Shown: one piece after another, positions 6,936 through 42,949 of the stretch
Layout of the letters: the number at the start of each line of letters is the position of its first letter
Position numbering within the stretch: position 1 is the stretch's first letter
Assembly (NCBI RefSeq): GCF_030684315.1
Contig: NC_081390.1
Coordinates: 5,456,001 to 5,520,000, forward strand
Origin: Stegostoma tigrinum
Lineage: Eukaryota
DNA length: 64,000 nt
Direction of reading: 5' to 3'
The notes under the pieces: generated by a model
What the model was told of the DNA's origin: nothing
The model's input: only the letters and a program-made list of their open reading frames with translations
Database searches by the model: none
Translations under genes and position numbers: made by a program

Positions 6936-6979
6936 CAGAAGTTATGTTCTGACATCGGATGAAGTTTGAAGGAAAGGAC

Positions 6980-7385: not shown

Positions 7386-7789
7386 TTGAAATGGTTGTTT
7401 CTATTTAAATTGACTGGTTTCTTAATAAGCCAAAATCTGACTGAGGAAGAGCTTTATTCGGGCTTAAGACTAACATTTTTATACTGTTCCTCAGATTCTA
7501 CTTACTGTAATTCACCCTGTCATCTCCATGACCTGAACAGTCTGGCTTAAATTGGTAATTATAATCCAGTCAGAAACTGATTTGGTAAAGGATTATTTCT
7601 AAGTTGCATACTCAAAACTGATATGTGTAATTAATGAAGTGAAGGAAACACTTATAATTGCTTACACAGTATGAAGGAGTCAGGGAGGCAGAGGCGAGCT
7701 CCAAAGAAAGCATAAAAATTAAGGCATTGCATTCGTCATGAGTTCCACTTGTACCCCTTGTCATATGTTGCAGAACCAATCATTGTCAT

Positions 7790-17942: not shown

Positions 17943-19939
17943 CTGTTTCTCACTGGTACTGTCTTTTGTGTGTACTCTCTCTCACTGGCGTTTTCACTCC
18001 CTTGTGTTCTCTCACTCTTTTGTGCCTTCTCTTTTTATTCACTTAAATTTCACGTTTCAAAATAAAAAGGCAAAAACAGCAAACTGGGATCAGAGTCGCA
18101 CTTCAGAAAGTTCATTGCAATCCTGTATCTATGCCACAAGCATTGAGTGAGGCCACAGCACCACCTTGGGGCAACTGGTAGAAACCTTGTGCAAATTGGA
18201 TTTAAGATTACCACAAGCGTATTGAGAGTGCAATAGATAGTTTGCTTTGTACTGCTGTCCCACCTTACTCTGACTCACTCACAGATGCAGAATGTAGGGA
18301 ATCAAGTATATTCATCAAAAGCATTTCTCTTGGTTTCTGACCAGGTCTTTTTTAAGCTGTACTTTAGAGAAAGTCTTTTTCTGGAATTTTGGGAACATTT
18401 TGGACCATTTATGCTACGTTTTAACCAATCGGTGCAACTATAGTTCACTATTTGCATGTTATGGGTAGACGATGATTTACGTTTTACACTTAGAGTTACC
18501 ATTTCTTATTCATTAAAGCCTGGGGCGTTTTTGACGAGAACATCTGTCAACTTTCCTTTACCAAGAGAAAGGAGTCACAATAAATAGACCTCAGACAGAT
18601 GACTGTCCTTTCTACTGAGTCTTGACCTTTACAAAATCATGCAGCCCACCCTACCACCTCGCAAACAGTTTTTATGCCCTAACACTGTACTAGTGCAAAA
18701 AGTCTCAACACCATCTGCTAACATTTGCACAAGGATGAGAAGAGAAGCATTCTCACTGACTAAGAGAACTGGTTTTACCCTTCACCTCTTCAGCATGAGG
18801 GAGGTTGTGAGAAATATTTAATAAAACGTATCAATAGATCTCCCTTGTAAAAAAGTTTAACTCTACATTTTAATGTTATTTTTGCCTGAGCAGTTTTGAT
18901 TAGGGGTTACAAACAATCCAATTGGAAATCCAATTTGCCTCTTGCACCAGTGCCAAACTATTGCAATAATCCTTTAATCCTTTTCATATCTAACAAGACC
19001 TCTGCCATGTCTTATTAATCCACATGCACAAACACAGGTTCACAGAGGCACACATGCAAAATTGAAGGCTCTTAGTATAATGCTGCATCTCTCCTGCTGT
19101 AGCATCAGTAGAGGTGAAATAACAGGGACTAATTTGGAGAAAATAGAAAGTGTGACGGAGGTGGAGTAACATCAGTGACTGGGCGAGTGATAAATCTGTG
19201 GGTGATTCAAGTGCATTCTAATTTAGCTCCCCTACACAGGTAGGTTGCAGCTCCTTCCATCTGTGGTGCTGACAATACGAGCAACATAATCCATCTCACT
19301 CATTTTTCATCAGGATTTGGGACAGCAGCTCCTCCTGATGTCCCCAGCCAAAGTGTATATCTGTAATGATTCAGCTTTTCCAATACAAACCTCAAAATAT
19401 CATGAGCATTATCATGTATCATTGAACGTATCATGTCCTTAAAATAATCAGTCATTCTGTAAGCCAAGGCAAGGTGATGGGGAATGGCTGAGTACAGCTT
19501 TGACCCAGCATCATTCTGCATCAGATACTTCCACAAAGCCCAAATAGCCATCCATTTCTTACAAGTGTCCTGTTGACACTGTGACTGCGTCTGAGCTAAC
19601 ATTTAATCCCCGAGAGCCTTGCTTTACGGCTACCCACTAGCAAGGCAGACAAGCCTCACTGCACTTTGAAAATGTAAACAAACTCCTTCCTTTGTTTTTG
19701 AATGCTCATGAGCTGACAACTTGGACACTCCACCTGCAACCCAACTAGATGGGCCTGAAACCAGCCAAGGCTCTTGAGTGTCATCCGGTGACCCCGTAGT
19801 ATATGTAGGTTATTAGATCAGGATGAGCCAACATGTTCTTTACAGTTGAATCACTAACCAAACGTGGCCTGTCAGTTGATGAAAGTGGTCTCTTGAATAA
19901 ACAAGCAGCTCATGAGCCCTGTCTGTGGAAATTGTTTCA

Positions 19940-20315
19940 GCCATAGGGTTATACAGCACAGAAGCAGACCATTTGGTCTAACTCGTCTGTGCCGACCTGG
20001 TATCCTAAACTCAATTAGTCCCATTTGCCTGTATTTGGCCCATATCCCTCTAAATCATTCCTATTCATGTACTCATCCAGATGCTTTTTAAATGTTGAAA
20101 TTGCACCCACCTCTACCACTTCCTCATTCCACACATGCATCGCCCTCTGTGTCAAAAAGTTGCAGCTAACATCGCTTTTAAATATTTCACCACTCACTTT
20201 AAACCTATACCCTCTGACTTTGGACTTCCCTACCTTTGAAAAAAGACCTTGGCTTTCACCTTATCTACAGTCCTCATTATTTTATGCATCTCTATAAGGT
20301 AACCTCTCAGCCCCC
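19940..20315 (-). mobile_element. CR1 3' fragment
   Basis: FLTQRAMHVWN...TFKKHLDEYMNR...GYGPNTGKWD, a typical CR1 C-terminus. Confidence 0.8.
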
Positions 20316-22176
20316 GAAGGTCAGTATCTTTTGGAGGGGAAGAAATAAACTGGGAACTTGGGAGAAATTGTGGTCCAAGTGAATTTCTGCAAAGTCTGCT
20401 TGCTTAACCTTTTCCATGTAAACATTGAGCTGACTGCACAGACATTAAGAAGATGGAAGAAGCTGCAACCTACCTGTGTAGGGAAGCTAGATTAGAATGC
20501 ACTTGAATCACCCACGGATTTATCACACGCCAGTCACTGACGTTACTCATGTATCTTTGTGTTTTCCTGCAATTCCAGAAATTACAGAACATAATGAAAG
20601 AGTTAAGGAATGGATGGACAGATGGGAGTGGGACTTCACACACAGTGACAGGAAAACCTATATGGTAGAAGCAAGAATGCAGCATGTATGTTGTATAGGA
20701 GAACGCTTGAGGAAGCTGGAAAGAGATCTAGAATCTCTGATGGAGAAGTTTTGAGACTGTTCTGTTTACTATTAAGAAATAGTAAATTAACTAAATAAGA
20801 TATGGGGATGCACAGGAGACGGTGCGACTGTTGAGCCTAAGAAGCTGATCTTGAAGCTGTATCTGGTCTTGGAGGAACTTAGGGAATACAGCAAACAAAT
20901 TTGCCTCCATATTATAAGAAAGCTGCATATTTACTTGAAGGGGGTTCAAAGAAAGGCTGCAAAGTGTGATTTTGAACTCAGCCATCTGAGTTCTGTGGAA
21001 AGGCATTTCATTCAGAGATTTGACTCTGAAGTGAGGTAGGGTTTGATGAGTGTCTTGGATGTGGAAAAGTTTCAAAAGCAATGTTGTGTAGGTTACAGTC
21101 TGAGCTGGACAGTTTAAACCATGATGGTGTAAAAGGAAAATTGAGGAATTTAGCATTGGTTTTCACAAAGAGTGAGATAGAATTTTAAAAACAAACAGAA
21201 TAGTGGAACAGTTTTGTTTTTAAAGGACCAGTTTGATTTTTGTTAGGCAAGGAAATGCATCTTTGTTATTTTCATAAATTTCAGTCAGGAAACTGGTTGT
21301 TTGAAAGAGCCGGTGAGATGGATATATGATCCCATCTCTAAACCTTCACCAGTTCTGTATTATATAAAAGGGCCTTCTCTGCCTTTGATGGATGACCTTT
21401 ACCAAATCCAAAATCAGACTACTGACATAACAGATAAAAAAAGAAATAATGGAAATACTCTAGCTCGGGTTGCATCTGTGGAGCAAGAAATGGAATTTCA
21501 GGACAGTGAACCTTTGTCAGGACTTCCGGCAGATGCTGACAATCTGAAATGATTTTGCTTTTGTGTTTGTGCTCTTGGAGTCAGGAAGTGTAGAGTTCAA
21601 AGCAGGGCTATGCTGGGCTCACCCTAGGGATTTAAATACTAACTTATAAATGAGTAAGTTCATGTCAGGGGCGGGGAGAGGTGAGGAGACAATTAGCTCA
21701 GTTTGCGACAGTCAGTGTCTGCTGCAGATTAAGGCCAAAAGTGTGGGGTTTGATCCCCATTTCAGTTGAGGTAGACTTAGAGATTGCCTTATCTCATAAT
21801 TGACAGTATAATCCATGATCAAGTAATCTAGAATACTATCTGGAGAAGAAGTGGTTTGATGCAAACATTATTAACCAATAAGCTCTATGTTACAAAGTGC
21901 ATCTGCTAGCTTCAACATTAGAACTTTGAAGCTCAGTTACTGTTTTGGGGCAATTGCCACAAACGTTTCTTGGACTGAACTGCTTGCTGTGGCTGAAGTA
22001 TTCGTCACTTGGAGCCAAAGATGTTCGTTAGTCAAGTGATTGGTTTCATCGTTAAAGCTGGAAACCTGGGCCCACAAATACATTTTTGTGCTTTGATCAT
22101 TGGCTTGTTGTGTCTTTGCATGTCATCCATGATTTTCTTTTGCCTTTGTTCTGTGCTCGGCTGTATGTTGCTACAG

Positions 22177-22625
22177 GAACCAGCTTCAGGAATCGACACC
22201 AGTGGAAAACTGACGTCAAGCCCTGAGTACCAGCTCAGTAGGACTGCATGGGCCTCTGCTAGCATGCGCTCTGCTAATGGGATGTCCTCTGATCACCTCA
22301 GCACGAGGGACAGCAGCTTGACACGTAGCTCAGAGATGACAGCATCTTTCAGGCAAACGTCTTCCATGACAACATCAATGTTCTCTCCAGCTACTTCTCT
22401 GACCTCAAGCCTTTCACCTCAAAGAGGGGTCAGCACTTCTCGGGCATCAGGAAGGGTTTATGATGTAACTGGTATTAAAGGTACAACGTCTAGCTCTGGC
22501 CATCGGAGGCAGTACAACAGCCCTCTGGGCCTGTATTCTAGAGAGACAATTGATGAAATGGTCAGGGCAACAGCCCAGAAGGATGACAGGCGAGACAGAG
22601 TCTCTGCAGGTGGATTCCTCCAAGG
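22177..22625 (+). CDS. LDB3: LDB3 alternative exon, cardiac-type ('exon 4'), with ZASP motif
   Basis: ctacag| acceptor and GG|gtaagc donor, 449 bp, phase 0 to 2. Ser/Thr-rich, ending RRQYNSPLGLYSRETIDEM...GGFLQG (ZM motif QYNxPxGLYS). Lies inside ORF 22009..22629. Confidence 0.92.
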
Positions 22626-24479
22626 GTAAGCATCAAAACTGCAATTGAGCACTCGGTGGATAGTTTGCCACATGCCTGCTATGTTTATGGCTTTAAGCGG
22701 ACTTAATTTTTAAAGCACTCCATATATAGTCCTTCATTAAGCAACCTGGTGAGCAGTTTCTAACTCTCAGCTCCTTGTCCAGTAGTTTGCCTCCAGTTAT
22801 ATTTGTTTGAATGGCTTTTAAGTGATTGCCCAACAACAGCAAAATCTCGTAGAATCTGGTACAATTGCCTTTGCTACCCATAGCACACAGTTCCGATGTA
22901 TAGGAACTTCTGCCCAACATTTCAAAGAACACTGGAGAGTGCTAAAGCAGCCAGCCACAGTCATAAAATGACAAAAGCTCAGGAAGAAGCAGCCATTCAA
23001 TGCCTCAAGCCTGTTCTGCCATTCAATTACATCATTGCTGATCTGTACCTTAACTGTATCAAACCTTGGTTAATACCAGTGAGAAAGACTGGTGACAGGG
23101 GTTGAGTGTAGGTTTCCAAGTGGGTGATGGGCCATTGGATTCTGGAGTTTATTGTACTTGGTTAACAGACTGGGTTACAGAACCAGTGTCACCTCCTCAG
23201 GAAGGGCTTATCCAAGAGGAGGGAGCACACAGTAGTTTGAGGCTCTGACCACCGACCCTCATATGTTTATACAGGTAATAATAAAAGTGCAAATGGACAG
23301 CAGGTTCCAGTTCGTAACTGTTTGGAATTATCTTGATGTTGCAATGTGTTTGCATCACATGCAGTTAAGTTGAATTTCCCCTTGGTCCCTGAGGCAGTTT
23401 TAAGACTTGTTTCCATCATTTTGTAAATGGATGCCCACCCCAACTTCTTGTGAAACCTGGAGGTAATAAGATGACAGTGCTGACAGTCAGACTATTCACT
23501 GGAGTTGTGCTGTGAACCTTAGGCTCCTTCACTTAATGCAAATGAAATCTGAATGTTACATTGATGCAAAGTCAGAGAGGCTGGTACAGATACGACAACA
23601 CCTCTGTGAATGTATCTTAATCTAGAATTAGTGGTGTTATGATTACACTATCAGACCAGTAATCAGCAGCCTGGACTGTAATACAGAAATTGGGAGCCCA
23701 AATCCCACCATGACAATTCGAGAATTTGTATACAGTCGTGGAAAAACTCTGCATGTAATAAGCTAGCATGAGTGAAAGTGATGATGAAGCTATTAGATTG
23801 TCACTAAGACCCAAATGAAAGCCTGTGTCCTTCCCCAGTGTGGTCTGTTTTTGATTCCAGGCTACCACCCGTATGGCTGACTCTTAATTGCTCTCTTTGC
23901 CAAGTGAGCCACCCTCTACAGAAGTTCAAGAAGGCCGATTGTACTGTTTTGAGAGGAGCTTCATTAAGGTCAATTTAATGCCAGTAATTACTCATTCCTG
24001 ATTTCCCAGAAGCCAGTTAAGACCACATTGCTATGTGTCTGGAGTCACATATGGGCCAGATTAGGCAAGGACGACAGATTTCCTTCTCTAACAGACATTA
24101 GTGAATTGGATGGGTTTTTATGACATTTGACAGTGATTAAATTTGAGATGGTTGTCCATTGGCTGATGTTTTATTCCAGGTTTTTATTGAATTTAAAGTT
24201 CACCACCTGCTGTGGTGGGATTTCAAGCAATGTCCTCCGATCATTAGCTTGAGGCTGTGGATTACTAGTCCTGTGGCATTATCACTACAAGATGGTGACT
24301 GGGTCAGACAGGCTCAGGTGGTGTGGAAGCAGCCTTAGAGAGACTTGGGGAAGACAGAAGGAAAGATGGGGATCCTGGTTGTGCCCAGAAGGAGAGAGAT
24401 CATGACAGTGTTGAGAGACTTCAGGTAGCAACAGATGATCTTGATAATGGAAGAGGAATTGGATGATTTGTAGAGCTTT

Positions 24480-27132
24480 TTTTTAATTCATTGATGGGAT
24501 GTCAGCATCACTGGCTAGGACAGTATTTGTTGTCCATCCCTAATTGCCCAGGGCCAGTTAAGACTCAACCACGGTAGATAAACAGGAGATTGGAAGAACA
24601 CAACAAGCCTAGCAGCCTCTGGAGGAAAGGAGCAGTCAACATATTGGGTATTACCCTTCTTCAGGACTGGATGCGGGGCTAGGGGGAGCTGCAGATAAGG
24701 AGGAGGGAGCAGCGGCGGCTAAATGGTGGTGACAGGTGGACACTGGTGGTAGGTGCGACCTGGTTGGTTGATGGGAAGGCTGAATCCGGTTGGTGGCTGG
24801 AAGGGAAGGTCAGAAGGTGGAATGAAAGGGAAGAGGTGGGACTGCATGGGGTGCTGGAGGATGGGTGGAAGGTTATTTGAAATTGGAGAACTCAGTGTTG
24901 AGTCTTCCAAACTGTAAGGTGCCCAAGTGGAAGATAAGTCGTTTCTCTTCAAATTTGCGTTCCAAGTCACTGCGACACTGGAGGAGGCTGAGGACAGACA
25001 TGTCGGAGGGGGAGAGGGGCGGGGAGTTGAAATGGGCGGTGACCAGGAGGTTAGGTTGGCCATTATGTGCCAAGCAGAGATGCTTAGTGAAACGGTCACC
25101 AAGTCTACATTTCGTCCCACTGACGTTGAGAAGACCGCATTGGGAGCACTGGATACAATAGACGAGGGCTGTTTAAGGCCCTGGATGGAGGTGAGGGAGG
25201 TGGTATGTGGGTAGGTGTTGCATCTTTTACAGTTTCAGGAGAAGGTACTGGGTGGGTCAGTGTGGTTGGTGGGGAGTGTGGTGCGAACTAAGGAGTGGTG
25301 AAGGGAATGGTCCTAGCAGAAGCCAGAGAGGTTTGGTGAGTGAAGATGTTCTTGGTGGTGGGGTCTAATTGGATTGGTGGAAATGTTTGAAGATGATATG
25401 TTGGATGCAGAGGCTGGTGGAGTGGAAAATGAGGACAAGGGGGACCCTTCATTTGTTATGTTTGGGTAAGTGGTTAACAGCTGTGGGGCAGGGAATGGAG
25501 GAGGCATGGTGGAGGGCTGTCTGGATGACAGAGTGGGGAAAAAGGCGGACATCTGGGATGCTTGGGAGTGGAACATCGAGTCAGAGCAGAGGCAATGGAG
25601 ATGGAGGAATTGGGAAAACGGGATAGAGTTTTTTTACAGGATACAGGGTGGGAGGAGGGGTAATCTAGGTACCATGTGAGTCATGGGTTTATTGTAAATG
25701 TCAGTCCATAAACTGTCACCAGAAATGGAGAGGTCAAGAAAGAGGAGGGAGGTGTCTGAGATAGACCAAGTGAATCAGACAGCAGGGTGGAAGTTGTCAG
25801 TGAAGTCGATAAACTGCTCCAGTTCAGCCTGATACAGAATACAGCACTGATGCAGTCATCGATGTAATGGCGGAAGAGTTGGGGAACAGTTCTGGTGTAC
25901 GCACTGAAGAGGGACTGTTCAACATAACCTACAAACAGGCAGGCGTGGCTGGGGCCCATGCAAGTGCCCATGGCAACCCCATGGATTTGGAGAAAGTGGA
26001 AAGAATTGAAGGAAAAGTTATTGAGGATGAGGGTTTTGTTTGGCGAGGTGGAGAACGGTATTGGTGGGGGGGAGGGGGGGGTGGTGTGGGTGGTACTAGA
26101 AGGGTCTGTTGGAGAAGAAAAGACTGAGGTCCTGCAGGCCGTCCTTGGGGTATGGACGTGTATAGGGATTGAACATCCATAGTAAAGATGAATTGCTGGG
26201 AGCCAGGGAACTGGAAGTTACCAAAGAGGTGGAGGGTGTGGTTTGTGACCTGGATATAAGTGGGGAGTGTCTGGACAAAGGGGGAGAGAATAGAGTCGAG
26301 GTAGGAAGAGATGAGTTCAGTGGAGCAAGAATATGTGGAGGCGATGGGTCGGCTGGGCAGTTGGGCTTGTGGATCTTGGGGAACAGGTAGAACCAGATAG
26401 TGTGGGGCTGGGGGTGTCTATAAGGCTGGAGGTGGTGGAGGGGAGGTCACCGGAAGCAATGAGATCATGAACAGTGAGGGAGACAGTAGCTTGATGGGCT
26501 ATGGTGGGGTAGTAGTCAAGGGGGAGGTAGGACGTGGTGGCGGAGAGTTGGCATTTGGCCTCTGCAACACAGGGGTCCGTCCTCCAGATTACCACTGCCC
26601 TGCCTTTGTTGGAGGGTTTGATAGTGAAACAGGGATTGGGGTGGAGCGCTGCTCATTCAGTGGGGGAGAGGTTGGACTGGGTGAGGGAGGTTGGAGAAAT
26701 TGAGGCAGTCGATGTCGCGTTGGCAGTTAGCAATAAAGAGGTCTGGGGTTGGTGAGAAGCTGGCAGGGGGTGTCGGAGAGGAGGAAGAAATTTGGAGGTG
26801 GGAGAAGGGATCCCCAGAGGGTGGTTATGAGTCTTTATCAAAGAAGAAGTCAACCACATTGCTGCAGACCTGGAGTCACATGTAGGCCAGACCAGATGAA
26901 AATGGCAGTTTCATTTCCTGAAGGATATTAATGGACCAGATGAGTTTTCCCAATAATTAACAAAGGATTTGTGGTCATCATGAGTTTCTTATTTCTGAAT
27001 TTTTGGTGAATTCAAGTTCCACCATCTTTCATAGCAAGATTTGAACTTGGTTCTGAATTCGGGCTCCCAGAAGACTAACTGGGTCTGTGCATTAACGGTC
27101 AAGCAATAATACCACCAGGCCATCACCTCCCT
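24480..27132 (-). mobile_element. tRNA-headed SINE split by the Penelope element. Related copies at about 830-1180(-), 24010-24290(-) and 23630-23900(+).
   Basis: cagttaagactcaaccac (to 24572) resumes as caaccacattgctg...ggagtcaca (from 26851); this sequence is contiguous in the other copies. Confidence 0.7.
24573..26840 (-). mobile_element. Degenerate Penelope-like retroelement (RT plus GIY-YIG C-terminal region)
   Basis: Fragments MDVQSLYTSIP, MGTCMGPSHACLFVGYVEQSLF...YIDDCI and AHFNSP...RKFEEKRLIFHLGTLQ...LNTEF. Hammerhead relic at 24633-24669. TCAACCAC duplicated at 24565-24572 and 26850-26857. Confidence 0.85.
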
Positions 27133-30100
27133 TTAAAGTGCACAATACAGTGAGAGCCCAGGTCTGGCTGGATTCCAATTCCAGCCTTTTTTATATGCAC
27201 TCACAAGATGTGGGCATCACCGGCTGGTCAGCATATATTGCTCATGTCTAGTTACCCTTGGGATGGTGGTCATGAGCTACCAACATTCACCACTGCAGCC
27301 CATGCGCAGTGCATCTACACACGATGCCATTGGGGAGAGAGTTCCAGTGTTTGCATGACCGACAGTGAAGGAACTGCGATATACTTCTGAGTTAGGATGG
27401 TGAGTACCTTGGAGAGGAACTCGCACTGGTGTTCTCATGTATCTGCTGCCCTTGGTCAATTTCTGCAGTGCATCTTGAGTTTCGATGTTGGAGGGTGTGG
27501 ATGTTTTAGGACATGGTGTCAGTCAGTCGGCTGCTTTTTCCTAAATGATGTCAAGCTTCTTGAGTGTTAGGAGAGCTGCACTCATCGAAGTAAATGGGGG
27601 TAACTTGGGTGAGTATTCTATCACACTGGTGCCTTGTTGGTGGGGAGGCTTTGGGGAATCAGGAGGTGAGTTACTAGCTGAAGTATTCAATGTAATTGAC
27701 TGCCTAGATGATTGTACATTAGTGTTTTGTTATGTTTGTAATCCTGTACTCAGCAGACTGCACTTGAGGTCATACAATTTCTTTTATAGTTGTATCACAA
27801 TTTACTGGTGAACTTATTTGTGTGAATGTTTTAAGGGTTTATTACGTCAGTGTGAATTATGTTATATGAGCAAATTCAGAGCTTCACAGAAATAGAGTAC
27901 GTCTAATTAAGGAATACAGCAAACAGTCTGCAAATAGCAAATTCCAACTTAACAGCACTACCCTCTTGTTATGATCAAAAAGATTTTTGGTCTTGCCACA
28001 ACCACAGGCCAGTTGCAGCCTCTCCTGCACGCTGTGTTGTTTCTTGCACACTGTTGGGAAGAATTTCAACATCCACAATGGATGGGGTAGGGAGTAAAGT
28101 TTTGAAGATCGCAAGCCTGCATCCAATGCAACCACTTGCAGTTATTAGGTCTTGATGCAACTGCAAACTGTTCCAAACCTACATTGTGTAAACAAGGCCA
28201 ATGAGGCTGCATGTCTAAAATTATCATGGACTTTTACATTTAATGGCCGTACATAGGCTTTCCAGGGCTTGGGAAAACAAACAGCTAAAGAGAAGCCAGA
28301 AATGCTCAGACATCAGCTGAGTGCCTTTTCAGCAGCCCTTGAGGAGTAGGAGCGTTTGGTCTGACACTCAAACTAATCTGAACTTGTAACTCCCCAGCAC
28401 CCCTGGCTGATCTGCCCACTCACGAGCTCTCCATCATCACTCCTCTCCGTTTCAACCAGCTCAGTCCTCCTGCTCAGCCTATCAGTTTGGCTGGGTCAGA
28501 GCAGAGGCAAGACAATGCATTTGAGATTCTGCCGTCAAGTGCAGAGCACCTGCATTTCTGTATTACCCAAACACTACCATCCTCCCGATTACCTCTCCTT
28601 AGTGATCATATGTGGGCATCTCAGGAGGAGATCTAGAGAGATATTGTCCTCCATTTGGAGAAACATAATTTTGAAAATGATCACTTGAGAATTGAGGAAT
28701 CTTACAGTGCTGCAATGTGATAGTGGCTCATGAAGATGGAAGTCTTACTTTTCGTTCTAGGATCTGTTGCCACTTTCTTAAGTATGGTCACCCTATCTCT
28801 CTGCAAAGGTTGTGCCTACTAAGCATCTCCACATTTTATTTCCAATTAGGGCAGTGCTCCAAATAGCTGCGAGTGTAACCAGAACTGAGGCTGGGAAACA
28901 GTTTCGTTCAGAGTGACATCAATACATATAAAACATTTCAGTTTTCCCAGTCCAGCAGAGAAACATTCAAAGATGTTAAGGGTGCGGTGAAAAGGACAAA
29001 TTAAGTTAGGATTCTGAGACATAAATAAAGCAAGAGCACAGGTAGCTGTGGAAGAAGCAACTGAATCCAGATCGCACACAATTTTGTGAATAATTGTTAG
29101 CAATTCCTCTAGAGTAACTAGTGTTTTTCTTTAAAATATTGTTCTGGAAAGTGCCACATATAGTGATGAAAATCAAATATCTATGATTTCTGACTATTTC
29201 CCTGCTGCTAACTATTTGAGTATGTATGACATATCAAGAGATGGAGAGAGATAACAGAAGGAAGTCCATTCTTTCAGAGTTAATGGTCTATTTTTAGCAA
29301 GTTTTCATTGTAATTGCTGTTTTTGAGATGTCAAACAAGAAAAAGCCTGAAAATCTCAGTGAGCCTGGAGAAGATGGTGAGCTGCCATGAGGCGGTAGAG
29401 AACCTGGAGCTTCTGGGATGGCCAGGTTGAAGTACTCCAGCAATGTAATTTTCAGCTGAGCAGACTCCGTTGTCATAACAAACATAGAAAGTGCTGAAGA
29501 AATTCAGCAGGTCCAGCAGCACCTGTGGAGACAGAGAAATAGGGTTAACTATTCAAGACTTTCAGTTGTTATACCCTGGCACAGACTGATTGTATTGCTA
29601 ATCATTCTCCCTCAGTTGTTGAATGGTGTTGTTGTTGTACCATGAGAGTGCTTGATCTGGGGGTGTATAATTGCTGCTGAATCTTATCTACTGTTTACTC
29701 ATTGGATGCTAAAAGTGATGGGAGTTGGGGCTTTTATCATTCAACCTGGTAATTTTGGCGTTGGTAACACTATGCATGTGGACCCCACTACCAGTGGGCT
29801 TCTCTTGGGGATGAAATCAAGCATTTGTTAAATGCAGCATTGAATTTGTGACACAGACTGAGACTCCCCTCCCGATGATCTGAACTTCACTGGATTTGAT
29901 GGGTCCATTAGCTCTTTCATGAGTGGATGTAGAGCTTTTTCCCCAAGTGGGTGCTAATACAGTCAAAATATCATATCCGAGTGGCCTCCAGAACTAAGGG
30001 TTGTTTAAGTGCTAATAAAGGAACTAAATTTGGTCTGAACCATGACTGTTACATTGTCACTGAAACAATGCCATTTTCATCCTTGGTTCTCAAAAGGCAA

Positions 30101-30542
30101 GTCCTGAATGTTTCATTAGAAACAAGGCTATCAGTTTGCAACTAAGGGTCAGAACAGGTACCTGGTGTGTTGGGTATGGTACGTACCTCAGTCCTCCCTG
30201 GTTCTCTGGAGAGATTCAGTGCTCTTTGGTGTATGTATTGTTAGTCTGCCCATTGGCATTTGATAACTGGCAATTTTGCAGAGTCTAGAGAGACTTTGAG
30301 CTTTCCCAGGGCTGAACGCAGACCTATTAGAGCAGCCTTACACAAAAAGGCACACCATTTAATCCTGCAGAATATATTATTCACTGAATTCTGGATGTTT
30401 GCCTGGAGGTGGATATGCTTCCCTCTGTAGTGATGGAGATGGGGAAACCCATTCCTCAGCAACAACTGGATTGTTCTGGAGTGTGACGTGATGCAGTTTG
30501 ATTTGAAAACTAAACTATCTTTTTAATTCTTTCCTCCCACAG

Positions 30543-30562
30543 ATCGTCAACACTACATCCAA
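30543..30562 (+). CDS. LDB3: LDB3 20-nt microexon, skeletal-type ('exon 5')
   Basis: Polypyrimidine tract plus cccacag|ATCGTCAACACTACATCCAA|gttagt. Encodes IVNTTS(N), similar to mammalian VVVNSPAN. Phase 0 to 2 joins the linker exon to the skeletal ZM exon in frame. Confidence 0.85.
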
Positions 30563-30700
30563 GTTAGTGGACTGCCATGTGGTGGTAGCGTGCGTGGCAT
30601 GATGTGATCTGTTAAAGGGCAGCATGAAGGGCACGGTGTTGCTCTGCCCTGCTGTGTTTGCTCTTTTGCGGGCATTGCTGTGCAGCATGTATGCAATTTC
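30563..30700 (+). promoter_or_regulatory. Putative intronic splicing enhancer downstream of the 20-nt microexon
   Basis: GCATG at 30597, 30622 and 30685, GCACG at 30631, several TGCT (YGCY) motifs and UG-rich sequence. Confidence 0.5.
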
Positions 30701-32279
30701 AAGCTATTTTCTCAGAGACTGAAGCTCAAACTGCTTTGCACAGTTGTTGCAGTGATGTAGCATTTCCTTTCCTCCCACTGCATAGAATCAATCAAACTTG
30801 TCCCACCCCTACCTGCCCCATCTGAAAAATGAAAATTTGAATCTGTTTTCTCGTCGGATTTCCTGAGCTCTAAGCATCAGAATTAATATTTCCAAAATCT
30901 ACTGTTCCAACTTTCAGAATCATTCCATTGGGATTGCTTTTAACATCACAAGGTGCAAGATCATCGTCAAATAGAACTTGACACATAACCAAAACAGGAG
31001 ATTTCAGTCTGGGTGCCATAAAGCTTGCTTGAATGGAATTGGGTTTTAAGGAGGTTCCACAAGAATCATCAAGGTAGACTGATTTAGGGTTGGATTTCCA
31101 GGGCCATAGTTGGAGACAGAGGACACAAGTTAGTGAAATGCACAGTTCCCAGAGGGCTGTAAGGCTGGAGAAAGCAACAAATACTGGAAGGATTCTAAAT
31201 AATTGTGCAGGGGAAATATTAAAATGCAGACATTAGTGGACTGGGAGCCACTGTAGGCTCAGGAATAATGGATGTGTGGTATGTGGAGAGCTGAATTTTG
31301 GAATTTGTAAGGTTTTGTTGCAAGAGCAGAAAGAATAGAGTGGCAGGAAAGAAAGAAAAATATTAGTGAGCAGGAAGGAACAAGCTTGAGAAAAATGAAG
31401 GGAAGATGTGATCCAAGAGACAGTGGGTTCATAGACCCATGGCTCACACATGTAACGATATACACGCATGTGTACATCTCTGTCAGTACGGGGACTGACA
31501 GAGATGTAGGCACATAAATAAGCAGAGAGAGAAAAAATGAGAAACATCAAAATACACAACAGAAGAATCAGAATTTGAAATAAAAATTTGTTGATGCTGT
31601 CAAAGTGAATCACCCTTTTGTGTATTTCCAATGTTTTTCCAAATAAATGTTTTAGATCTGAAAGAGTTTGGTCATTCGTTCCACCCTCTTCCTGGCATGT
31701 TCCCATCTCTTTACACTGGCAAGTTGAAACTAAAATCAGGGAAAATGATCAGTAAAGACAAAGGTAAAACTGATGGAAACAAACTCCTGGCTTTTTCATG
31801 TGAGATTCTAATTCCCATTTGGATACTGTGATTGATTGATTCTAAATTGTGTGAGACTGGAGATTGAACCTTTTAATTCTGTTGGCAGGACCATGGCAGA
31901 TCATGAACTATTGCCCTTTCCTCAATGTTTAAGAGATGTGTTGGAGTGAGCTCCCAGATTTCTTGGAGACAATGGTTTCCTTTATGCTCTGAAATGTCTC
32001 AGTAGAATCTGGGTCAGTTGATTCATAGTGCAAAGTTCCACTAGGCACCAAACCCTCCCTAGGAGAAGGTGATCAACAGAGGGACTTGTTACCATTGATT
32101 CAAGGTGATCTTTAGCAACAGCTGAAGAGCATTCATATGTACATGAATACATTTTCTTTAGACTTGGGATCCACTCAGCCTTGTAAGAGCTGAGCCTGTC
32201 AAGCTGGAAGTAACCTGCTCTGGATAGGCATTTGTTCCCTCCACCCTGCCCTTTCACCAAAGCCCTGGTAGTGTCTAAA

Positions 32280-32465
32280 AACCCAAAACAACTGTGGATG
32301 CTGGAAATCAAATTAAAAACAGGAATTGCTGGAAGAATTCAGCAAGTCTGGCAGCTTCTGTGGAAAGAAATCAGAATTAATGTTTCACGTCCTTCTTGTT
32401 GTCTCTGTTTTGCCTCCTCAAATGCTGTCAGACTTGGTGACTTTTTTCAGTGAATTTTTTTTTGT
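32280..32465. repeat. Old imperfect inverted-repeat element (probably Penelope-derived). Similar relics at about 21435-21560, 29480-29560 and 63255-63378.
   Basis: ggatgctggaaatc...cagcaagtctggcagcttctgtgga versus aatgctgtcagacttggtgactttttt; architecture resembles the younger 17635 and 56019 elements. Confidence 0.5.
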
Positions 32466-33539
32466 TCCTGGCTCTGTGTGTATGCTTTCAAACAGCCCTT
32501 GCTGCCTTGCTGAATAAGGATTGATCACAACTGCTTGTCAGTGCCATACTGACGTTCTGTTAGACCACTGAGGCTTATTTGCTGCTCACAGTGGAACTAT
32601 GTGTGAAATGGATGAGAATCTGATTGTCATTACAGTACCTTCCCTTGGTGGAATAGCTTGCTGACTGAGTCTGTTTCACAATTGAAAATGGCCTCAAGTA
32701 AGCGGCATTAGGAGAGAAACCTAGACCCTGAATGAGCTCATAGACTTCACTGAGTAACAACAATGTTGCCTACTGATGGGCCATTATTTGGGTTTTATAA
32801 TTAGGTGCTTACAGGGCTTTTCGAGTTAGGATAAAGGTTGAGAGAATAAACCTCGAGCTGCACTCTTTGACCCATGCTCATATTTCTCAAGACAGCTTCT
32901 GAGACGGAATCTAAAGTAATGACTCCTTTTGTATCTTCACTTCGATTAATCCATTCTAATCTGCAGGGAATCCCAGAGGCATAGGAAAATGTTCTGTTAC
33001 ATTCAGAATTAAAACCTTACGAGGAATCTAAGCTTAGGTTGAGCTGAAATAAAGCCACTTCACCTTGCACAGCTGGTTGGGAAAGAGAATATTGCATTTG
33101 TTGAAAAGCAGCTGTTTGCAGGTCAGAGCTACAGCGGTGTGGGGGGACTGCAATCCATGCTGTTTCTGATCGAGGAGTAAATGAGGCCATCATAAAGAAA
33201 GGAGTTCTTAACATTAAACAAAATAATTCACGGAGACTGTATGGTCCAATTTTATTTCACATTTAACACGTGATCTCTTCCTAGCTCATATAGTTTTATG
33301 TTGCATCAATGATTAATCTTAGGACACTGCTAAAAGAAACCCTGAACAGTCCAGCAGGAAATTCATAGGACAGTTGGAAATGGAAGTTGTAAGGTGAAAT
33401 CTTTAGGAATGCATCCACTCGGAGCTGGCAACTTTAATGTGGCCTTTACTTTTTAAAAGTTTCTAATTCCTGGATAGAGAGCATGGTCATCACTTGCCCA
33501 ATCCTCCAATAGACATAGCAGTAGAAAGAACAGACACAA

Positions 33540-34120: not shown

Positions 34121-34560
34121 CAAGACCAGCAGCATGGTGACAACTTCCTCACTACTATTGATCTTCCTCTTACTAAGACTCCACAAAATGAAGGCCTGTT
34201 TTACTGATGTTGTTTTGAATTGGGGTTGAATAGACAAGACCTGAGTAGATCCAGTCTATCCCTGCATACTGCATTTTAACCCCAAACAATTGCCAAGATA
34301 GTGAGAGGGAAAATAAGAATTAGTGGTTGTGTCTAATGTATACATGTATTTTTATGAAATTGGAACTGTCCACTCAGGAACTGCTGGTTTTCAATGCAGC
34401 CAAGTGTAGTCATGGCAATTCTGCACTTTGATGCTTGAAAAAATGTTGAGTGTGGGGGAAGCTCAAACATAAATATTGAAGTGGAAAAACTTCCTTAAAG
34501 CCACCCTATGACCATTGGCGGCCTTAAGCTAGATTTTTCAGTGCATACTGGTTTGTGTAG

Positions 34561-34662
34561 TGCATGCTGGGTAGAAGGATGGGTTGAGCAATGCATGTTG
34601 GGCAGAAGGATGGAGCTGTGTGCTGCATGCCGGATATTTGGAGCAGTTTTGTAGGATGCATG
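34561..34662 (+). promoter_or_regulatory. Cluster of four TGCATG (RBFOX-type) motifs
   Basis: TGCATG at 34561, 34592, 34624 and 34657, spaced 31-33 nt apart, in the intron between the skeletal-type exons. Confidence 0.55.
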
Positions 34663-35050
34663 CGGAGTCTGGTCTGATTATTGAGGGGGTTCTGTGCTAG
34701 TTCGAGATCTTCAAGCCTGGATGTGAGTTTGCTCGCTGAGCTGGAAGGTTCATTTTCAGACGTTTTGTCACCTTTTTTTGTTTGAAAAAATATACTTTAT
34801 TCATGGAATGTACAAAAAATAAAATGTTTATACACCTACCCAGTCATTCAAGCCACTCCAGGTTACCCAGGGGGTACGTACACCAACTAAAGGAGAAAAC
34901 GAAACAAAGAAGAAAAAAAACAAAGCAAAGAAAATACCCCAACAGTCGTCTCCCTGCACAGTCCCAGTTGGCCCCCTGACCAGTTGGGGAAGGTGCCAGC
35001 TGGGCCCAGTTACCAGATAGGGCTCTTGTTTCTATTCTGGACGAGGGGTT

Positions 35051-38000
35051 TCATATGGTGGTCTTTCCCCACCGCGCCTTGGCAGCGGCTGCCCCAAGCT
35101 TTAGCGCATCCCTCAGCACGTAGTCCTGGACCTTGGAGTGCGCCAGTCTGCAACACTCGGTCGGGGTCAGTTCTTTCAGCTGGCAGACCAGCAAGTTGTG
35201 GGCAGACCAAAGAGCGTCTTTCACCGCATTGATGGTCCTCCAGGCGCAGTTGATGTTGGTCTTGGCGTGCGTCCCCGGAAACAGCCCGTAGAGCATAGAG
35301 TCCCGTGTCACGGAGCTGCTCGGGACGAACCTCGACAAATACCACTGCATCCCCCTCCAGATCTCCTGCGCATAGGCACACTCCAGAAGGAGGTGATAGG
35401 CGGTCTCGCTCCCCCCCCCCCCAACCCGCCGCAGCTGCCTCGAGGGCAGCGTGCTGTGGCACTGAGATTCCGGGCATGCATAAAGGATCTCACTGGCAGA
35501 GCCCCTCTCACCGCCAGCCAAGCAATGTCCTCATGCTTGTTTGAAAGTTCTGGCAGTGAGGCATTCTGCCAAACGACTTTGGCAGTCTGCGTGGGGAACC
35601 ACACGACGGGATCCACCCTCTCCTTTTCACGAAGGGTCTCGAGGATACTACGTGCTGACCACTGCCTGATGGCCTTGTGGTCAAAGGTGTTTCCTTTCAA
35701 AAATTTCTCCACGAAGGACAGGTGGTACGGAACGGTCCAACTACTCGGAGCGTTCCGCGGCAACGAGGCCAGGCCCATCCTTCGCAACACCGGGGACAGG
35801 TAGAACCTCAGTAAGTAGTGACACTTGGTGTTTGCGTACTGAGGATCTACGCACAGCTTGATGCAGCCGCATACAAAGGTAGCCGTCAGGGCGAGGGTGG
35901 CGTTCGGTATGCCCTTTCCCAGGTCTTTGTACATGGTGTGCCTGCGGACCCGATCCATCCTCGACCCCCAAATGAAGTGGAAGATGGCCCGGGTGACCGC
36001 AGCGGCGCAGGTCCAGGGAATAGGCCAAGCCTGCACCACATACAACAGTACTGAAAGCCCCTCGCACCTGACAACCAGGTTCTTACCCGCGATGGAGAGG
36101 GATCGGAGCGTCCACCTGCCCAGCTTCTGCTTCAGTTTGGTGATACGCTCCTCCCAAGTCTTAGTGCACACCCCAGCTCCACCAAACCAAACACCCAGCA
36201 CGTGCAGGTAGTCTGTCCTGACAGTGAAGGGGATGAAGGAGCAGTCGTCCCAGTTCCCGAAGAACATGGCCTCGCTCTTAGCCCGAGGCCAGTTCAAACT
36301 GGCCGCAGATGTCCAACAGCCTACTCACCGACCAACGATCGGTGCAAAAGATGGCGACATCATCCATGTACAGGGAGGTCTTGACCTGAAGGCCTCCGCT
36401 GCCTGGGATAGTCACGCCCTTCAGGCTCACGTCTTTCCTGATGGATGCGGCGAAGTGCTCCATATAGCACACAAACAAGGCAGGAGAGAGTGGGCAGTCC
36501 TGCCTGACTCCAGATCTGACCGGAAAACTGTCTGATTCTCACCCGTTGATCGAGACTGCGCTAACGACGTATGTGTAGAGCAGCCGGATCCAATTGCAAT
36601 GCCCTCCCCGAACCCCAATTTGGAGAGGACGTCCCTCATGTAAGCATGAGAGACCCTGTCGAAGGCCTTCTCCTGGTCCAGGCTGACGAGGCAGGTGTCC
36701 ACCCTCCTGTCCTGCACATAGGCGATCGTATCCCTGATGAGCGTGAGGCTCTCAGCGATCTTCCTGCCCGGCACAGCACAGGTTTGGTCAGGGTGAATCA
36801 CCGACTCCAGGACAGGCCTGACCAGGTTGGCGATGACCTTGGCCAGGATTTTGAGGTCCACATTCAATAATGAAATGGGACGCTAATTCTTAATTTCTTC
36901 CCTCCCCCCCTTCCTCTTGTAAATGAGGGTGATGATGCCCTTCCTCATGGACTTGCACATTTCCCCTGCCCGAAGCGCACTATCGTACACCTCCAGCAGG
37001 CCCTGGCCAACCAGGTCCCACAGAACGGAATACAGCTGGTCGCTCCCGGGAGTCTTATTCCTCTCAAAGGACTTGAGGGCTCTGGTCAGCTCATCCAGGG
37101 ATATCGGCTGGTCCAGCCACTCCCTCGTGCCGTCGTCTAAGACCTCCGTGATAGATGACAGGAAGGACTTGGAGGCCGTGCTGTCCGTGGGCTTTGCGTC
37201 ATACAGTCCGGCATAGAAGAATCTGCTGATCCTCAAAATGTCGGGCCGAGACGACATCCCAAGCCATCATCCTTCTTCAGCCGGCTAAGCACAGAGCTCT
37301 CTTTGTGCACCTACTGAAAGAAGAAATGCAAGCGCGTCTTGTCCTGCTCCACGGAGCGGACCCTGGACCGGAAGATTATCCTGGAGGCCTCCGCAGCGAA
37401 GAGTGAGGCTTGCTGGCCCCTCACCTCGCGGAGGTCCTCCGTGACATCAACCCCCATCAACTGCAGAAGGAGCAGGTTCTGCATCCTTTTCTGGAGTCGC
37501 GACAGCTTTCCCCACCTCTCTCTCGCCTTCCGAACACCCTTGAGGACAAAGAACCTCTTGATATTCTCCTTCACCGTCTCCCACCAGTCGCCTGGAGACT
37601 CAGAGAGGGGTTTCACGGTTCTCCAACTGGTGTATTCCCTCTTAAGCTCCTCGACGTTCTCTGGGGTCAACAGAGTCATGTTGAGGTTCCACGTCCCCTT
37701 GCCGGCCGACTGGTCGTCCTGTAAGTGACAGTCGGCCAGCAGGAGGCAGTGGTCAGAGAAGAACACCGGCTCGATGCCGGTGGACCTGACCAAGAACGCC
37801 CATGACACAAACAGGAAGTCTATCCTTGAGCGGATAGACCCGTCTGGCCGTGACCAGGTGTATCTTCGCTGTGCTCTGACTGCAGGGGTGCTGAAGATGT
37901 CGAGCAGCTTGGCGTCCTTCACCGTGCCCATCAGGAATCTGGACATGATGTCCAGGTGACTCCCCCCACCCGCTGTTCCCACACCGGATCTTCCATCTGC

Positions 38001-38445
38001 ATTGATGATGCAGTTGAAGTCTCCGCCTAGAATGACCGGCCTGGACGTGGCCAGCAGGGGTGGAAGCTGCTGCAGGACGGCCAACCGCTCACTCCGTACC
38101 GCTGGGGCGTACACGTTGATCAGCCTCAGGGGAGCATTCCTGTAGGTGATGTCAGCCACTAGGAGGCGCCCCCCCACCACCTCCTGAACTTGAGAGATGG
38201 TGAAGTTGCGCCCCTGCAGCAGAATAGCCAGGCTCGAGGAGCGACAGTCATTACCCCCCCGACCAGATTGAAGGCCCACAGGTCCAGGCGCCGGACCATT
38301 TCCCGTACCTGCTGAGGTGTGGTATCCTGCACTCCTGAAGAAACAGGAGGACTGCCTTGACTGTGGTCAGGTAGGCCAACGTGGACACACATCTTGTGGT
38401 GGACTTGACGCTGCGCACATTAATGCTCACAACTTGTACCTCCAT
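35051..38445 (-). pseudogene. Tx1 ORF2 (APE endonuclease plus reverse transcriptase), disrupted by frameshifts and stops
   Basis: APE motifs: SINVRS, LQE, INVYAP, GGDFNC, SRIDFLF, FSDH. RT motifs: KILAKVIA, SLDQEKAFDRVSH, LYMDDV. C-terminal ETAYHLLLEC; ends RWGKTTI*. Confidence 0.9.
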
Positions 38446-39881
38446 TGTGGGCAGTGACCGCAGTACCCTCCCCAAGTCCAAGGTCTAGCCCCTCCATCTG
38501 TCCCTTCATGCCCATTGCCCGGGCTAACTGCTGGACGCTGTCCGGGCTCAGGGAACCGTCCGTGCTGCCTTCCGAGTGGCATCCCCCCGTTGCGGGTACG
38601 GAGGCAGGAGAGTCCAGCTCTGGGTCAGGCTGGGGACACGCTGTTTCCTGCTTTCCGCTTGAAGGTTCTGGGGGGCCATCCGGGGCCCCAGCGGCATGTG
38701 GCTGGGTGTCGGAGGGAGCCTCAGGACGCCTCCCGTCACCTGGAAGCGGGGTGCTGCTTTCCCTCTCCCTTGAGATCTTTAGCTTCTGCTTTGGGCGGGC
38801 CTCCTCCGAATCCCCCTCGTCAAAAGAGCTCTTATAGCCCCCCTGTAGCTGCCTCTTCCCGCCTGATGGTTGTGGTGCCGGGGCCCGCTGGCGCGCCTTC
38901 CTCCTCGCCCTCCAGACCGTCGTCCACTCCCCTGGGTCACCTGTCGCCTCCTCCATCGACTTTGGTTTGTCGGGGGGGAGCGGAGCCTACAGGGGCGCTT
39001 TGCTGGCCTTGGGTCCGTCCTGTGGGGCTGGGCCCTCCTGCACAACCTAGCCCTCCTGCACACTAGGGGGGTCCTTGCAGGGGCCTGGTGCCTTCCTCTC
39101 CTCCTGGGGTGGGGCGGGGGGGGGGGGGGCTTGCCCCGCATTGCCCCTGCCGGCGACCTGGGCGTAGGTGGTTCCCCGCCACGGGCATGCCCTAGCGAGG
39201 TGTCCCGCTTCCCCGCAAAGGTTGCAGCTCTTTTCTTGTGGGCAATCCTTTGCAAGGTGTCCCTCCTCCCTGCAGTTCCTGCAGATGGTGGCTTTGCAGT
39301 CGGCCGCCACGTGACCTGACCTACCACAGGCTTGGCAGACTTTGGTAGCCCTTGCTCCCGCCGATCACGAAGCTGGACGGTGGGTGTACGATATTCCCGT
39401 CTGCGCCCGTCTTCTGTGTCACCCCGACCTGCCTCTTACTGGTCCAGATCCCGAAGGGGTCCATGATGTTGGTTAGGTCCCCTTCCACCTTCACATACTT
39501 TCCGAGGAAGGTCAGGACATCAGCTGCTGGCACATGCGGGTTGTACATGTGTATAGTCACCATACGGCTCCTCTGCGCTGGCATCACGAACAGCGGGACG
39601 GCTGTCAGTACAGAGAGGGGGCCCTCACCTCCTTTCTCCTTGAAAACCTCCAGGAAGTGCTCACAAAGCTTGGCACTCCTGAAGGTTACATCGTAGAAAC
39701 CTCCTCCAGAGAAATCCTGCAGGCAGTAAATGTCCACAGCAGCAAACTCAGAACAGTCCAACAGGACCGTCTTCACGAAGAAGGTGCAGTCCACAGGTGC
39801 AACTTCATCCACCTTCTTCACGGAAACGCGGATGGTGTTCCGGACTCCCTGACCTGCGGCACAAGCACTTGCCGCAGTCAT
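38420..39881 (-). pseudogene. Tx1 ORF1 (gag-like zinc-knuckle protein), disrupted
   Basis: Starts MTAASACAAGQGVRNTIRVSV, then CRNCREEGHLAKDC and CNLCGEAGHLARAC knuckles and a low-complexity tail. Split over several ORF-track frames; overlaps the ORF2 start by 26 nt. Confidence 0.85.
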
Positions 39882-40444
39882 CGTTGCAGGTTGGCTGCTC
39901 CCCTGAACCAGCGTTAGGCCGAAGCCAGCATTAAGATTCACCGGTTGCAAGGGTGCACAGCCAACCCGACGTCTTCCTTCCACCCCCAACACAGTCGCGC
40001 TCTCCTCTTCTCAGTCCACAAAAGAGTGGGTCTTTATTTTGTTCTGGATGTAAGCTGGTTCACTGAGCTGGAAGGTGCGTTCCCAGACAATCCGTCACCA
40101 TTCTAGGTAACATCATCAGTGAGCCTCCGGTGAAGCGCTGGTGTTATGTCCCGCTTTCTATTTACGTGTTTAGGTTTCCTTGGGTTGGTGATGTCATTTC
40201 CTGTGTTGATGTCATTTCCTGTTCTTTTTCTCAGAGGGTGGTAGATGGGCTCCAAATCAATGTGTTTGTTGATGGCATTCCAACCAGAACTCCATCAACA
40301 AACACCTTGATTTGGAGCCCATCTACTACCCTCTGAGAAAAAGAACAGGAAATGACATCAACACAGGAAATGACATCACCAACCCAAGGAAACCTAAACA
40401 CGTAAATAGAAAGCGGGACATAACACCAGCGCTTCACCGGAGGC

Positions 40445-40484
40445 TCACTGATGATGTTACCTAGAATGATGACGAAACGTCTGA
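40445..40484 (+). ncRNA. Minimal type I hammerhead ribozyme motif (Penelope-associated)
   Basis: tca-CTGATGA-t-GTTACC-tagaat-GATGAC-GAAA-C-GTC-tga. Intact CUGANGA and GAAA cores, stem II with one mismatch, palindromic ACGT in place of stem III, GUC cleavage triplet, short stem I. Confidence 0.6.
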
Positions 40485-41407
40485 AAACAAACCTTTTAGC
40501 TCAGCGAGCAAACTTATATCCGAAACCTCAACCTAAGCTACAAATCTTCTCAAAACTCGCCATCTTCAAGCCTCTTTTTCTTATATTCCTTTTATGGAGG
40601 GTAAAATAAAACTGCTTGACTTAACTGACCGCAGAGTGGAGAGGAAATAATCACATTGCTTATTCCTTAAACTTTACATCTGAAGGTGTTCTCCAACATT
40701 CCTGGAATTGAGTTGCTAATGGCTCCTTGTTTGAAAGTACTGCAAAGCTATAATGCAGGAAACATTTCTGTTTAAATGATTCACACATTTGTCTTTACTG
40801 GAACTGGGAAGGTATGGATGGAATGGAGTTCAAAAACTGAGACCTGGTTGAACAACCCCTACTGAGCTAGTGACCTGCATGGCCTGTACTTGCTCTTGGC
40901 AGTATGTAGACATTGGGTATGGATAAGCAGACGTTTCAGAGCTATTTGGTTACCTCCTTCCATATCCATTGCTGAACCTAAGTGAAGCCTCGTTTCCCAT
41001 TGATTGGTCTCTTTGGAATTAATTAACCTTGACTGGAGGATCTCTGCAAACAAAAACATGGTGCCTGTCCTCTGAATTCTCTCTGCTTCCCTCCAGCAGC
41101 CCCTGCTGATTCCACCTAGCTGTCTCCAGCAAGGTGGTAGAAGTCAGGATATACTGTGATTGATTTGCTAACATAACACTATTAAACTACTTAAAATCAC
41201 CGTAAGTCTTTGGTTCTAAGTACAACTTTAATGACATTCAAGACCTTTGACATTTCTTTTAACTGTGTATTTATTTTTGTTCTCTTTTACTGTTTGAACT
41301 GTTTGAGGGCTGAGTGTTGATAGTATCTCCCAAGATCAACAAATCTTTTACTACTGCTTTCTCTTTTCAGTGACTCACAATGACATATGCACCACTTTTA
41401 ACAGGAG

Positions 41408-42440: not shown

Positions 42441-42748
42441 GCCCAATCATCAATAAGGTATTAAAAGTGGGACCCAAAATGATATACAATAGTCAACATA
42501 TTTAAGCCTCAGAATGAGAGAATTGAAATAGAGGGGTTTACATAGAAGATTGGCAAGTTGTCTTTTCATACAAGCGTATGTAATTTCCTCTTAGGTTCTG
42601 AATTTGGAATCAGAAATGGGGAGGTACAAGTAACTTCTGCTTACCCATTGCCACTTCTCTCCCTCACCCCAGAGAAATGTTTCCCTGCATTGCTTTCTTC
42701 CTTTTCACCATTTGCTCTCCTGTCCTTTCTCACTCCCACGACTGATAG

Positions 42749-42949
42749 TGAGTATACGGATCATTTCAACCCCAACATCCTGAAGGATTCTGTGTTGTCC
42801 ACACACAAGCCCATCGAGGTGAGAGGTCCTGGTGGGAAGGCCACCATCATCCATGCCCAGTATAACACCCCCATCAGCATGTACTCCCAAGATGCCATCA
42901 TGGATGCCATTGCTGGCCAGGCTCATGCCAGAGGCAGTGATCTTTCAAG
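42749..42949 (+). CDS. LDB3: LDB3 skeletal-type ZM exon ('exon 6')
   Basis: gatag| acceptor and AG|gtaggc donor, 201 bp, phase 2 to 2. Reads EYTDHFNPNILKDSVLSTHKPIEVRGPGGKATIIHAQYNTPISMYSQDAIMDAIAGQAHARGSDLS, highly similar to the ZASP ZM region. Confidence 0.97.

Follow-up and report, generated by a model that had tools for sequence, protein, structure and literature searches.

The 64,000-nucleotide stretch of Stegostoma tigrinum contig NC_081390.1 analysed here (the window) carries a Tx1-type long interspersed element (LINE) inserted in the hammerhead motif of a Penelope-like element (PLE), and comparison of copies across the genome indicates that this Tx1 family is strongly site-specific and sits almost only at this one PLE site. 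The sequences make it likely that the LINE reaches the site by nicking the PLE DNA with its own endonuclease and that its 5' end is joined by strand exchange between a target-derived leader and the target. It is the DNA site that is targeted; the data lend no support to a role for the ribozyme. A first-pass annotation of the window had called the LINE a candidate 'ribozyme-targeting' element, a description that is apt for its position and goes too far beyond it, as Tx1 also enters its own leader, in which the core is broken (L096, L077 and L288), and the leader itself disables the core.

The same annotation proposed that this Tx1 family is specific for the sequence of the PLE hammerhead region and suggested a search with the Tx1 3' end followed by alignment of the flanks. 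The best 30 loci from this search, which include the window itself and a duplicated pair, all run into the target, in its original or its leader form. The genome contains 2,419 exact matches to a 24-mer of the Tx1 tail, and 99 of the first 100 such tails on contig C1, which are unselected copies, lie on the target (84 recognized by pattern, nine read individually and six of seven read in a further set), in agreement with the proposal. Genome-wide, GCTCAG is found 30–50 nt downstream of 1,968 of the 2,419 tails, a share close to the 84 of 100 in the sample that has 99 on target. The converse search returned the same Tx1 family at 30 of 30 A-tail/target junctions, and the chance of a random insertion falling at the site is ~1.5 × 10^-5. 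The 3' junction is located in hammerhead stem II, immediately before GGTGAC or GTGAC and always in the PLE orientation, with the register GG in 49, G in 47 and another in three of the 99 copies, the A-rich tails of which are 4–12 nt long. Capture–recapture gives ~4,300–4,600 Tx1 copies. Strict empty sites number 12,506, which at a detection rate of 0.38–0.69 corresponds to 18,000–33,000 empty sites, and the filled share of sites is 12–20%.

At the 5' end of full-length Tx1 copies stands a 59-nt leader, an altered version of the target 3' half that reaches up to the short PLE end and evolves with the Tx1 subfamily. The leader of the window copy, a feature absent from the first-pass annotation, is identical to the target 3' half at 41 of 54 positions and forms the 5' junction TAGAAT/GGTGAC-GGATTGTC, where the hammerhead core is broken. 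Thirty loci found with the Tx1 5' untranslated region (UTR) have PLE sequence upstream in 29 cases and a Tx1 tail in one, while 30 of 30 loci found by the leader pattern (966 occurrences genome-wide) continue into the Tx1 body. We compared 126 Tx1 5' junctions with 130 empty sites, leaving out loci chosen for the T variant at position −17. The Tx1-type letter is present at −17 in 45 of 122 scored junctions (37%), at +16 in 111 of 126 (88%) and at +37 to +47 in 95–99%, whereas none of the 130 empty sites has it at −17 or +16. The −17 variant, which converts CTGATGA to CTGTTGA, occurs 915 times, and 29 of the 30 occurrences read are Tx1 junctions. Target-type letters at +16/17 are kept in none of 44 junctions with T at −17, compared with 13 of 72 with A (p = 0.0017). 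The switch from target-type to Tx1-type letters occurs at variable points, from upstream of −17 to beyond +17, often overwriting target bases upstream, and it nests in the way that a single crossover between a cDNA bearing upstream PLE sequence and the target would be expected to leave. The possibility that the 59-nt repeat is a plain long target-site duplication was ruled out, as its differences from the target are common to the copies and follow the Tx1 subfamily.

Two leader-type/target-type hybrids, L348 (G000:C1:11822612) and the 3' flank of L288, have no Tx1 body after them and were possibly left by leader–target recombination that removed a Tx1. A fixed C-to-T change at +37 of the leader (window 40061–40063, minus strand; T in 120 of 125 leaders) creates a TGA stop in the PLE frame, as read by eye, and with it a short upstream frame ahead of open reading frame (ORF) 1.

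In the mechanism that we propose, the ORF2 protein would nick either of two neighbouring bonds in the bottom strand and then prime on the poly(A). The Tx1 RNA would start upstream in PLE sequence, probably from a PLE promoter, so that the cDNA would end in PLE-like sequence, anneal to the target and replace part of it, as proposed for R2, an element with a restriction-like endonuclease. Loss of the ribozyme core would keep the target homology on the RNA, and the leader would recreate a usable target, from which tandem arrays could arise. Alternatively, the target might be set by RNA–DNA homology (of the leader or of any 3' read-through) or by tethering to the PLE machinery, with a loosely specific endonuclease. 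Every full-length copy examined bears 5' target homology, partner arms are co-filled in excess (see below) and less than 90 nt of upstream PLE is present at one of 46 filled sites versus nine of 30 empty sites (p = 0.0007, short-arm detection having differed between the two sets). However, the 3' junction is confined to one or two bases and its variable A-tails are independent of subfamily, which fits protein-defined nicking, and target choice is described as mainly set by the endonuclease (PMC4494074, Introduction). We therefore regard homology or tethering as a very improbable determinant of the target and nicking by the Tx1 endonuclease as the better account.

A relatedness test on 99 copies (L159 being dropped as a duplicate of L125) shows that the leader subtype tracks Tx1 relatedness (delta 0.093, p = 0.0002), unlike the junction register (p = 0.15) and the length of the PLE tail (p = 0.81). 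Among 60 loci taken in genome order, the 5' end is retained in 49 and PLE lies directly upstream in 45; the PLE upstream of Tx1 has a median length of 399 nt versus 354 nt for empty partner arms (p = 0.42). Tandem insertion of Tx1 before its own leader was found in four of 30 cases and also at L077. The lack of a link between subfamily and either register or tail length, the completeness of the 5.3 kb copies, the shortness of the PLE arms and the tandem stacking together show that the Tx1 copies are mostly independent insertions of their own into existing PLE arms. The opposing explanation is that one or a few old Tx1-in-PLE insertions were amplified as cargo by the PLE reverse transcriptase (RT) and endonuclease, the shared flank being inherited and not chosen. 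This would have to reconcile PLE arms of at most 1.8 kb with the 49 of 60 copies that are complete over 5.3 kb, and routine copying of such a length is not to be expected of an enzyme whose usual product is a few hundred bases long. The spread of the two registers and both tail lengths across subfamilies also speaks against it, as do the tandem insertions into the leader, which require targeting by Tx1, and the many double-filled pairs that are not closest relatives. Cargo copying as the source of the shared flank is in our judgement very improbable, and it is unlikely to have been the main route.

Several observations nevertheless weigh against independent, targeted insertion as the whole account. 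One of the 100 sampled tails, L341, is off target, and L337, from a separate set of T-bearing sites, breaks the nesting of the 5' switch points. Eleven of the 60 copies are without their 5' end (L254 being cut by the fetched window), and none of these joins the upstream target half in the manner of a plain truncated product of target-primed reverse transcription; they abut inverted arms, inner PLE or unique DNA instead. Tx1 relatedness shows a weak association with the 3' PLE haplotype (p = 0.019 and 0.013) and a stronger one with upstream PLE haplotypes (p = 0.0006 or less); a common age, upstream sequence carried along with the element or cargo copying might each be responsible. Both fold-back arms are filled in 14 of 31 cases versus an occupancy of at most ~20% (p = 0.0013), an excess that may be inflated by age structure and sampling, and six of 23 partner arms have each other as nearest or second-nearest relative. 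Fold-backs in which both arms are 5'-truncated Tx1 and the duplications are of the PLE type (L134, L269, L280, L281 and L309) likewise point to cargo copying, but such truncated pairs could also stem from deletion at the palindrome centre or from gene conversion. At L132 (G000:C9, ~75.80 Mb; positions 2300–8552), a 13-bp duplication directly encloses an inverted Tx1 segment and a Tx1 3' end with its A-tail and the full PLE tail, without the PLE 5' half. Gene conversion and palindrome deletions are alternatives for the co-filled or related arms in all cases but L132. It is somewhat probable that a minor second route exists, in which the PLE machinery copies Tx1-loaded PLE RNA to new sites.

The exact hammerhead core is intact in 12 of the 126 Tx1 junctions versus 62 of the 130 empty sites, and A6-to-U or GATT changes, which are unexplained by CpG decay, are present in 62 junctions versus no empty site. 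The leader rebuilds stem II yet usually breaks the core. Since the core is mostly broken at the junctions and Tx1 lands in core-broken leaders, the ribozyme is dispensable for targeting and is not likely to be used for processing. A role in processing would require that the leader rebuild the hammerhead, cut read-through RNA at +14 and free the Tx1 5' end in the manner of the hepatitis delta virus (HDV)-type ribozyme of R2. The rebuilt stem II and the 12 exact cores would be consistent with such borrowing, and the R2 5' ribozyme is itself partly built from target sequence according to the available part of PMC3774820. However, the core is broken in 114 of the 126 junctions, with the A6-to-U and GATT changes found only beside Tx1, and this is not the pattern of an intact ribozyme conserved at the 5' junction as in R2. 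The predicted cut falls downstream of the Tx1-specific letters at −17 and +7 to +11, so the RNA that was copied had not been cut at that point, and the predicted folds of two leader junctions and of that in the window pair the CUGA core with downstream sequence, with weak z-scores. We consider it highly unlikely that the ribozyme has been borrowed in this way. The commonest core change, ACGTC to ACATC, is a CpG transition that could have become fixed in master copies through decay, so that the loss of cleavage need not have been selected. At a single locus, L300 (G000:C1, ~55.45 Mb), the PLE sequence that follows the Tx1 tail extends only to +14/+15, where the hammerhead is predicted to cut, and a duplication at the ends was not seen.

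We tentatively entertain the further idea of a two-way parasite pair, doubtful as it is at present. Tx1 would take its site, promoter and joining homology from the PLE, would have come under selection to inactivate the ribozyme in the RNA that it makes and would disable every PLE start that it enters, and would in turn be copied by the PLE enzyme, so that one element would be served by two retrotransposition machines.

The host is, by its sequence features, a Penelope/Poseidon-type PLE. Its arm in the window codes for the C-terminal end of the PLE protein, and a longer 2-kb copy (L131) has motifs, read by eye, that we take to be those of an RT and a GIY-YIG-type endonuclease. PLE hallmarks are present in the form of inverted 5'-truncated arms, an optional tail and outer duplications of ~8–14 bp; the arms are short (median 270–400 nt, maximum 1.8 kb), and there are two 3' ends ~35–40 nt apart, the difference being the tail. 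Empty sites read CTGATGA-T-GTTACC-TAGAAT-GGTGAC-GAAACGTC and match the PLE minimal hammerhead as laid out in the available part of PMC4209133 (CUGAUGA, an extra base before helix II, G10.1–C11.1, GAAA, palindromic 15.2–16.2 and UH). The hammerhead is recognized from the motif alone: Rfam gave no match in the window at the gathering score and no hammerhead at one empty site up to E = 10, and the z-scores from folding the motif did not reach significance. PAc, a lizard PLE, has a reading frame that begins inside the hammerhead, and its tail is delimited by two RT start sites (PMC11167929, in the part available). The shark PLE frame, read by eye, opens with the ATG of CTGATGA and has no stop as far as the end of the tail, so that the Tx1 insertion probably splits the PLE coding start. 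A second PLE family, ~67% identical, adjoins a Tx1-filled locus (L150:617–2528). At L253 the unit stops at target position +23 with a 14-bp duplication directly after it, which makes this PLE 3' end shorter than either of the usual two.

Profile searches of the LINE in the window identified PF03372 (APE endonuclease) and PF00078 (RT) in ORF2 and PF00098 (three stretches), PF23057 and PF23058 in ORF1. Intact ORF2 frames of 1,139 amino acids are present in copies L258 and L310. In an RT tree built without labelled Tx1L or Keno sequences and without an outgroup, the nearest proteins are amphibian (54–56% RT identity, SH-aLRT 97), and identity is 45% to a protein from zebrafish that bears the name 'transposon TX1 149 kDa'. 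No tie between the fugu protein BAD04856 and any named family was found, and the endonuclease domain had no sequence match in the PDB. At non-CpG sites, the copies diverge from the column majority by a median of 2.4% and the window copy by 3.3%. Internal deletions are common among copies that retain both ends (L255, L257, L270, L274, L278, L279, L286, L290, L291, L295, L302 and L303).

Tx1 families that prefer DNA transposons, long terminal repeat (LTR) retrotransposons, U2 genes and microsatellites have been described; Tx1L/Tx1 of Xenopus laevis inserts into the Tx1D piggyBac-type transposon, Keno into U2 snRNA, and the crocodilian Tx1-Mar and Tx1-9_AMi into Mariner-N4_AMi and Harbinger, respectively (available text of PMC4494074). 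The shark element resembles the Tx1L/Tx1-Mar/Keno group of that paper in being an APE–RT LINE with a CCHC-bearing ORF1 and a fixed site in a multicopy element, transposons and retrotransposons included, and its tandem stacking recalls the tandem insertion reported there for SINEU-3. It differs in its target, the PLE hammerhead region (the words 'Penelope' and 'shark' are absent from the main text of PMC4494074), and in its 59-nt target-derived leader with crossover into the target, which is not described in the parts of that paper available to us. The suggestion in the first-pass annotation that such a target was without precedent holds for the PLE hammerhead, of which no account was found, and fails for retroelement targeting by Tx1 in general, since Tx1-8_Crp and Tx1-4_AMi prefer LTR retrotransposons (PMC4494074, same portions). 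No PLE-targeting Tx1 was found in a literature search to which Repbase and several key Tx1 papers, which could hold such a family, were outside the scope; nor does a site-specific parasite of the PLE hammerhead region appear in the accessible portions of PMC4209133, PMC11167929 and PMC8557442, the last of which does not contain the term 'Tx1'.

The leader has a parallel in the earwig R2, which has at its 5' ends 22 bp copied from the downstream target, with three substitutions, and for which it was proposed that upstream target sequence on the cDNA anneals to give uniform 5' junctions and propagates junction variants (available part of PMC3774820). Both thus have a target-derived, substituted sequence at the element 5' end. 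R2 inserts into 28S rDNA and depends on an HDV-like ribozyme of its own, whereas the shark element is of the APE type, has a longer leader, overwrites the target and breaks the ribozyme motif of its host. The host itself is like other Penelope/Poseidon PLEs in its RT and GIY-YIG motifs, inverted truncated arms, two 3' ends and minimal hammerhead with a frame that apparently starts inside it (PMC4209133, PMC11167929 and PMC8557442, in the parts available). The target is new and the leader is target-derived and ribozyme-broken, while the strategy of precise targeting is itself known from Tx1L, Tx1-Mar and earwig R2, which makes the surprise moderate. The finding adds a target class for site-specific LINEs, the ribozyme region of another non-LTR-type retroelement. 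Its thousands of natural junctions record homology-based 5' joining by an APE-type element, a step mostly studied in R2. The intact ORF2 frames make the specificity testable, a single-site APE–RT protein being of interest for targeted gene insertion, and loci of the L132 kind, with Tx1 as cargo, are relevant to how PLEs move, which is still poorly understood.

In other organisms, a contig from organism B crosses the 3' junction with 31 + 28 letters, which is below the acceptance bar, and a leader-type loose end is also present there. Contigs from organisms C–F contain the PLE site with a TAGTAT loop as well as Tx1-like tails, and none of those listed bridges a Tx1/PLE junction. None of the sequencing runs listed as carrying the sequence is of RNA, which has no bearing on whether it is expressed. 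Runs X7, X15, X18 and X19 against window positions 34500–35200 show Tx1-like elements that share the terminal motif and differ in the 3' UTR.

The features of the insertion are listed in Table 1. The three nested layers recognized in the first pass (an LDB3 intron holding a fold-back PLE that holds a Tx1-type LINE) are all confirmed in the window. LDB3 exons on the plus strand (22180–22626 and 42738–42947) lie on both sides of the unit, which is therefore intronic, with the LINE antisense to LDB3. The 12-bp duplication reported for the PLE has just its two bounding occurrences within the window, the LINE reported as 5.3 kb spans 5,327 nt (34773–40099, minus strand) and its A7 tail meets GGTGAC at 34772, directly after TAGAAT in the motif, as had been drawn. 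The two fold-back arms are identical at 177 of 181 bases upstream of the target; the Tx1-bearing arm terminates at the short PLE end and the empty arm in the long tail.

Table 1. Features of the nested insertion in the window (positions are those of the window).
Feature	Position	Strand	Remark
PLE target-site duplication, left copy	34707–34718	.	ATCTTCAAGCCT; exact repeat
3' half of PLE target (GGTGAC...CACATCC)	34719–34772	−	Stops at short PLE 3' end
Tx1 A7 tail	34773–34779	−	Abuts GGTGAC
Tx1 3' UTR	34780–35050	−	
Tx1 ORF2	35051–38445	−	APE endonuclease, RT, zf-RVT-like end; stops and frameshifts in window copy
Tx1 ORF1	38420–39881	−	Two ZCCHC3-type RNA-binding domains, three CCHC knuckles; broken in window copy
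Tx1-specific 5' UTR	39882–40040	−	
59-nt Tx1 leader	40041–40099	−	Diverged copy of target 3' half; GGATTGTC in place of GAAACGTC core
5' half of minimal hammerhead motif (CTGATGA-T-GTTACC-TAGAAT)	40100–40119	−	Features compared with available part of PMC4209133
Tx1-carrying PLE arm	40100–40280	−	5'-truncated PLE 3' end
Inverted empty PLE arm	40287–40561	+	Uninterrupted motif at 40448–40481; long tail
PLE target-site duplication, right copy	40562–40573	.	ATCTTCAAGCCT; exact repeat

Beside the insertion, the intron contains three degenerate 31-nt direct repeats (34549–34642).

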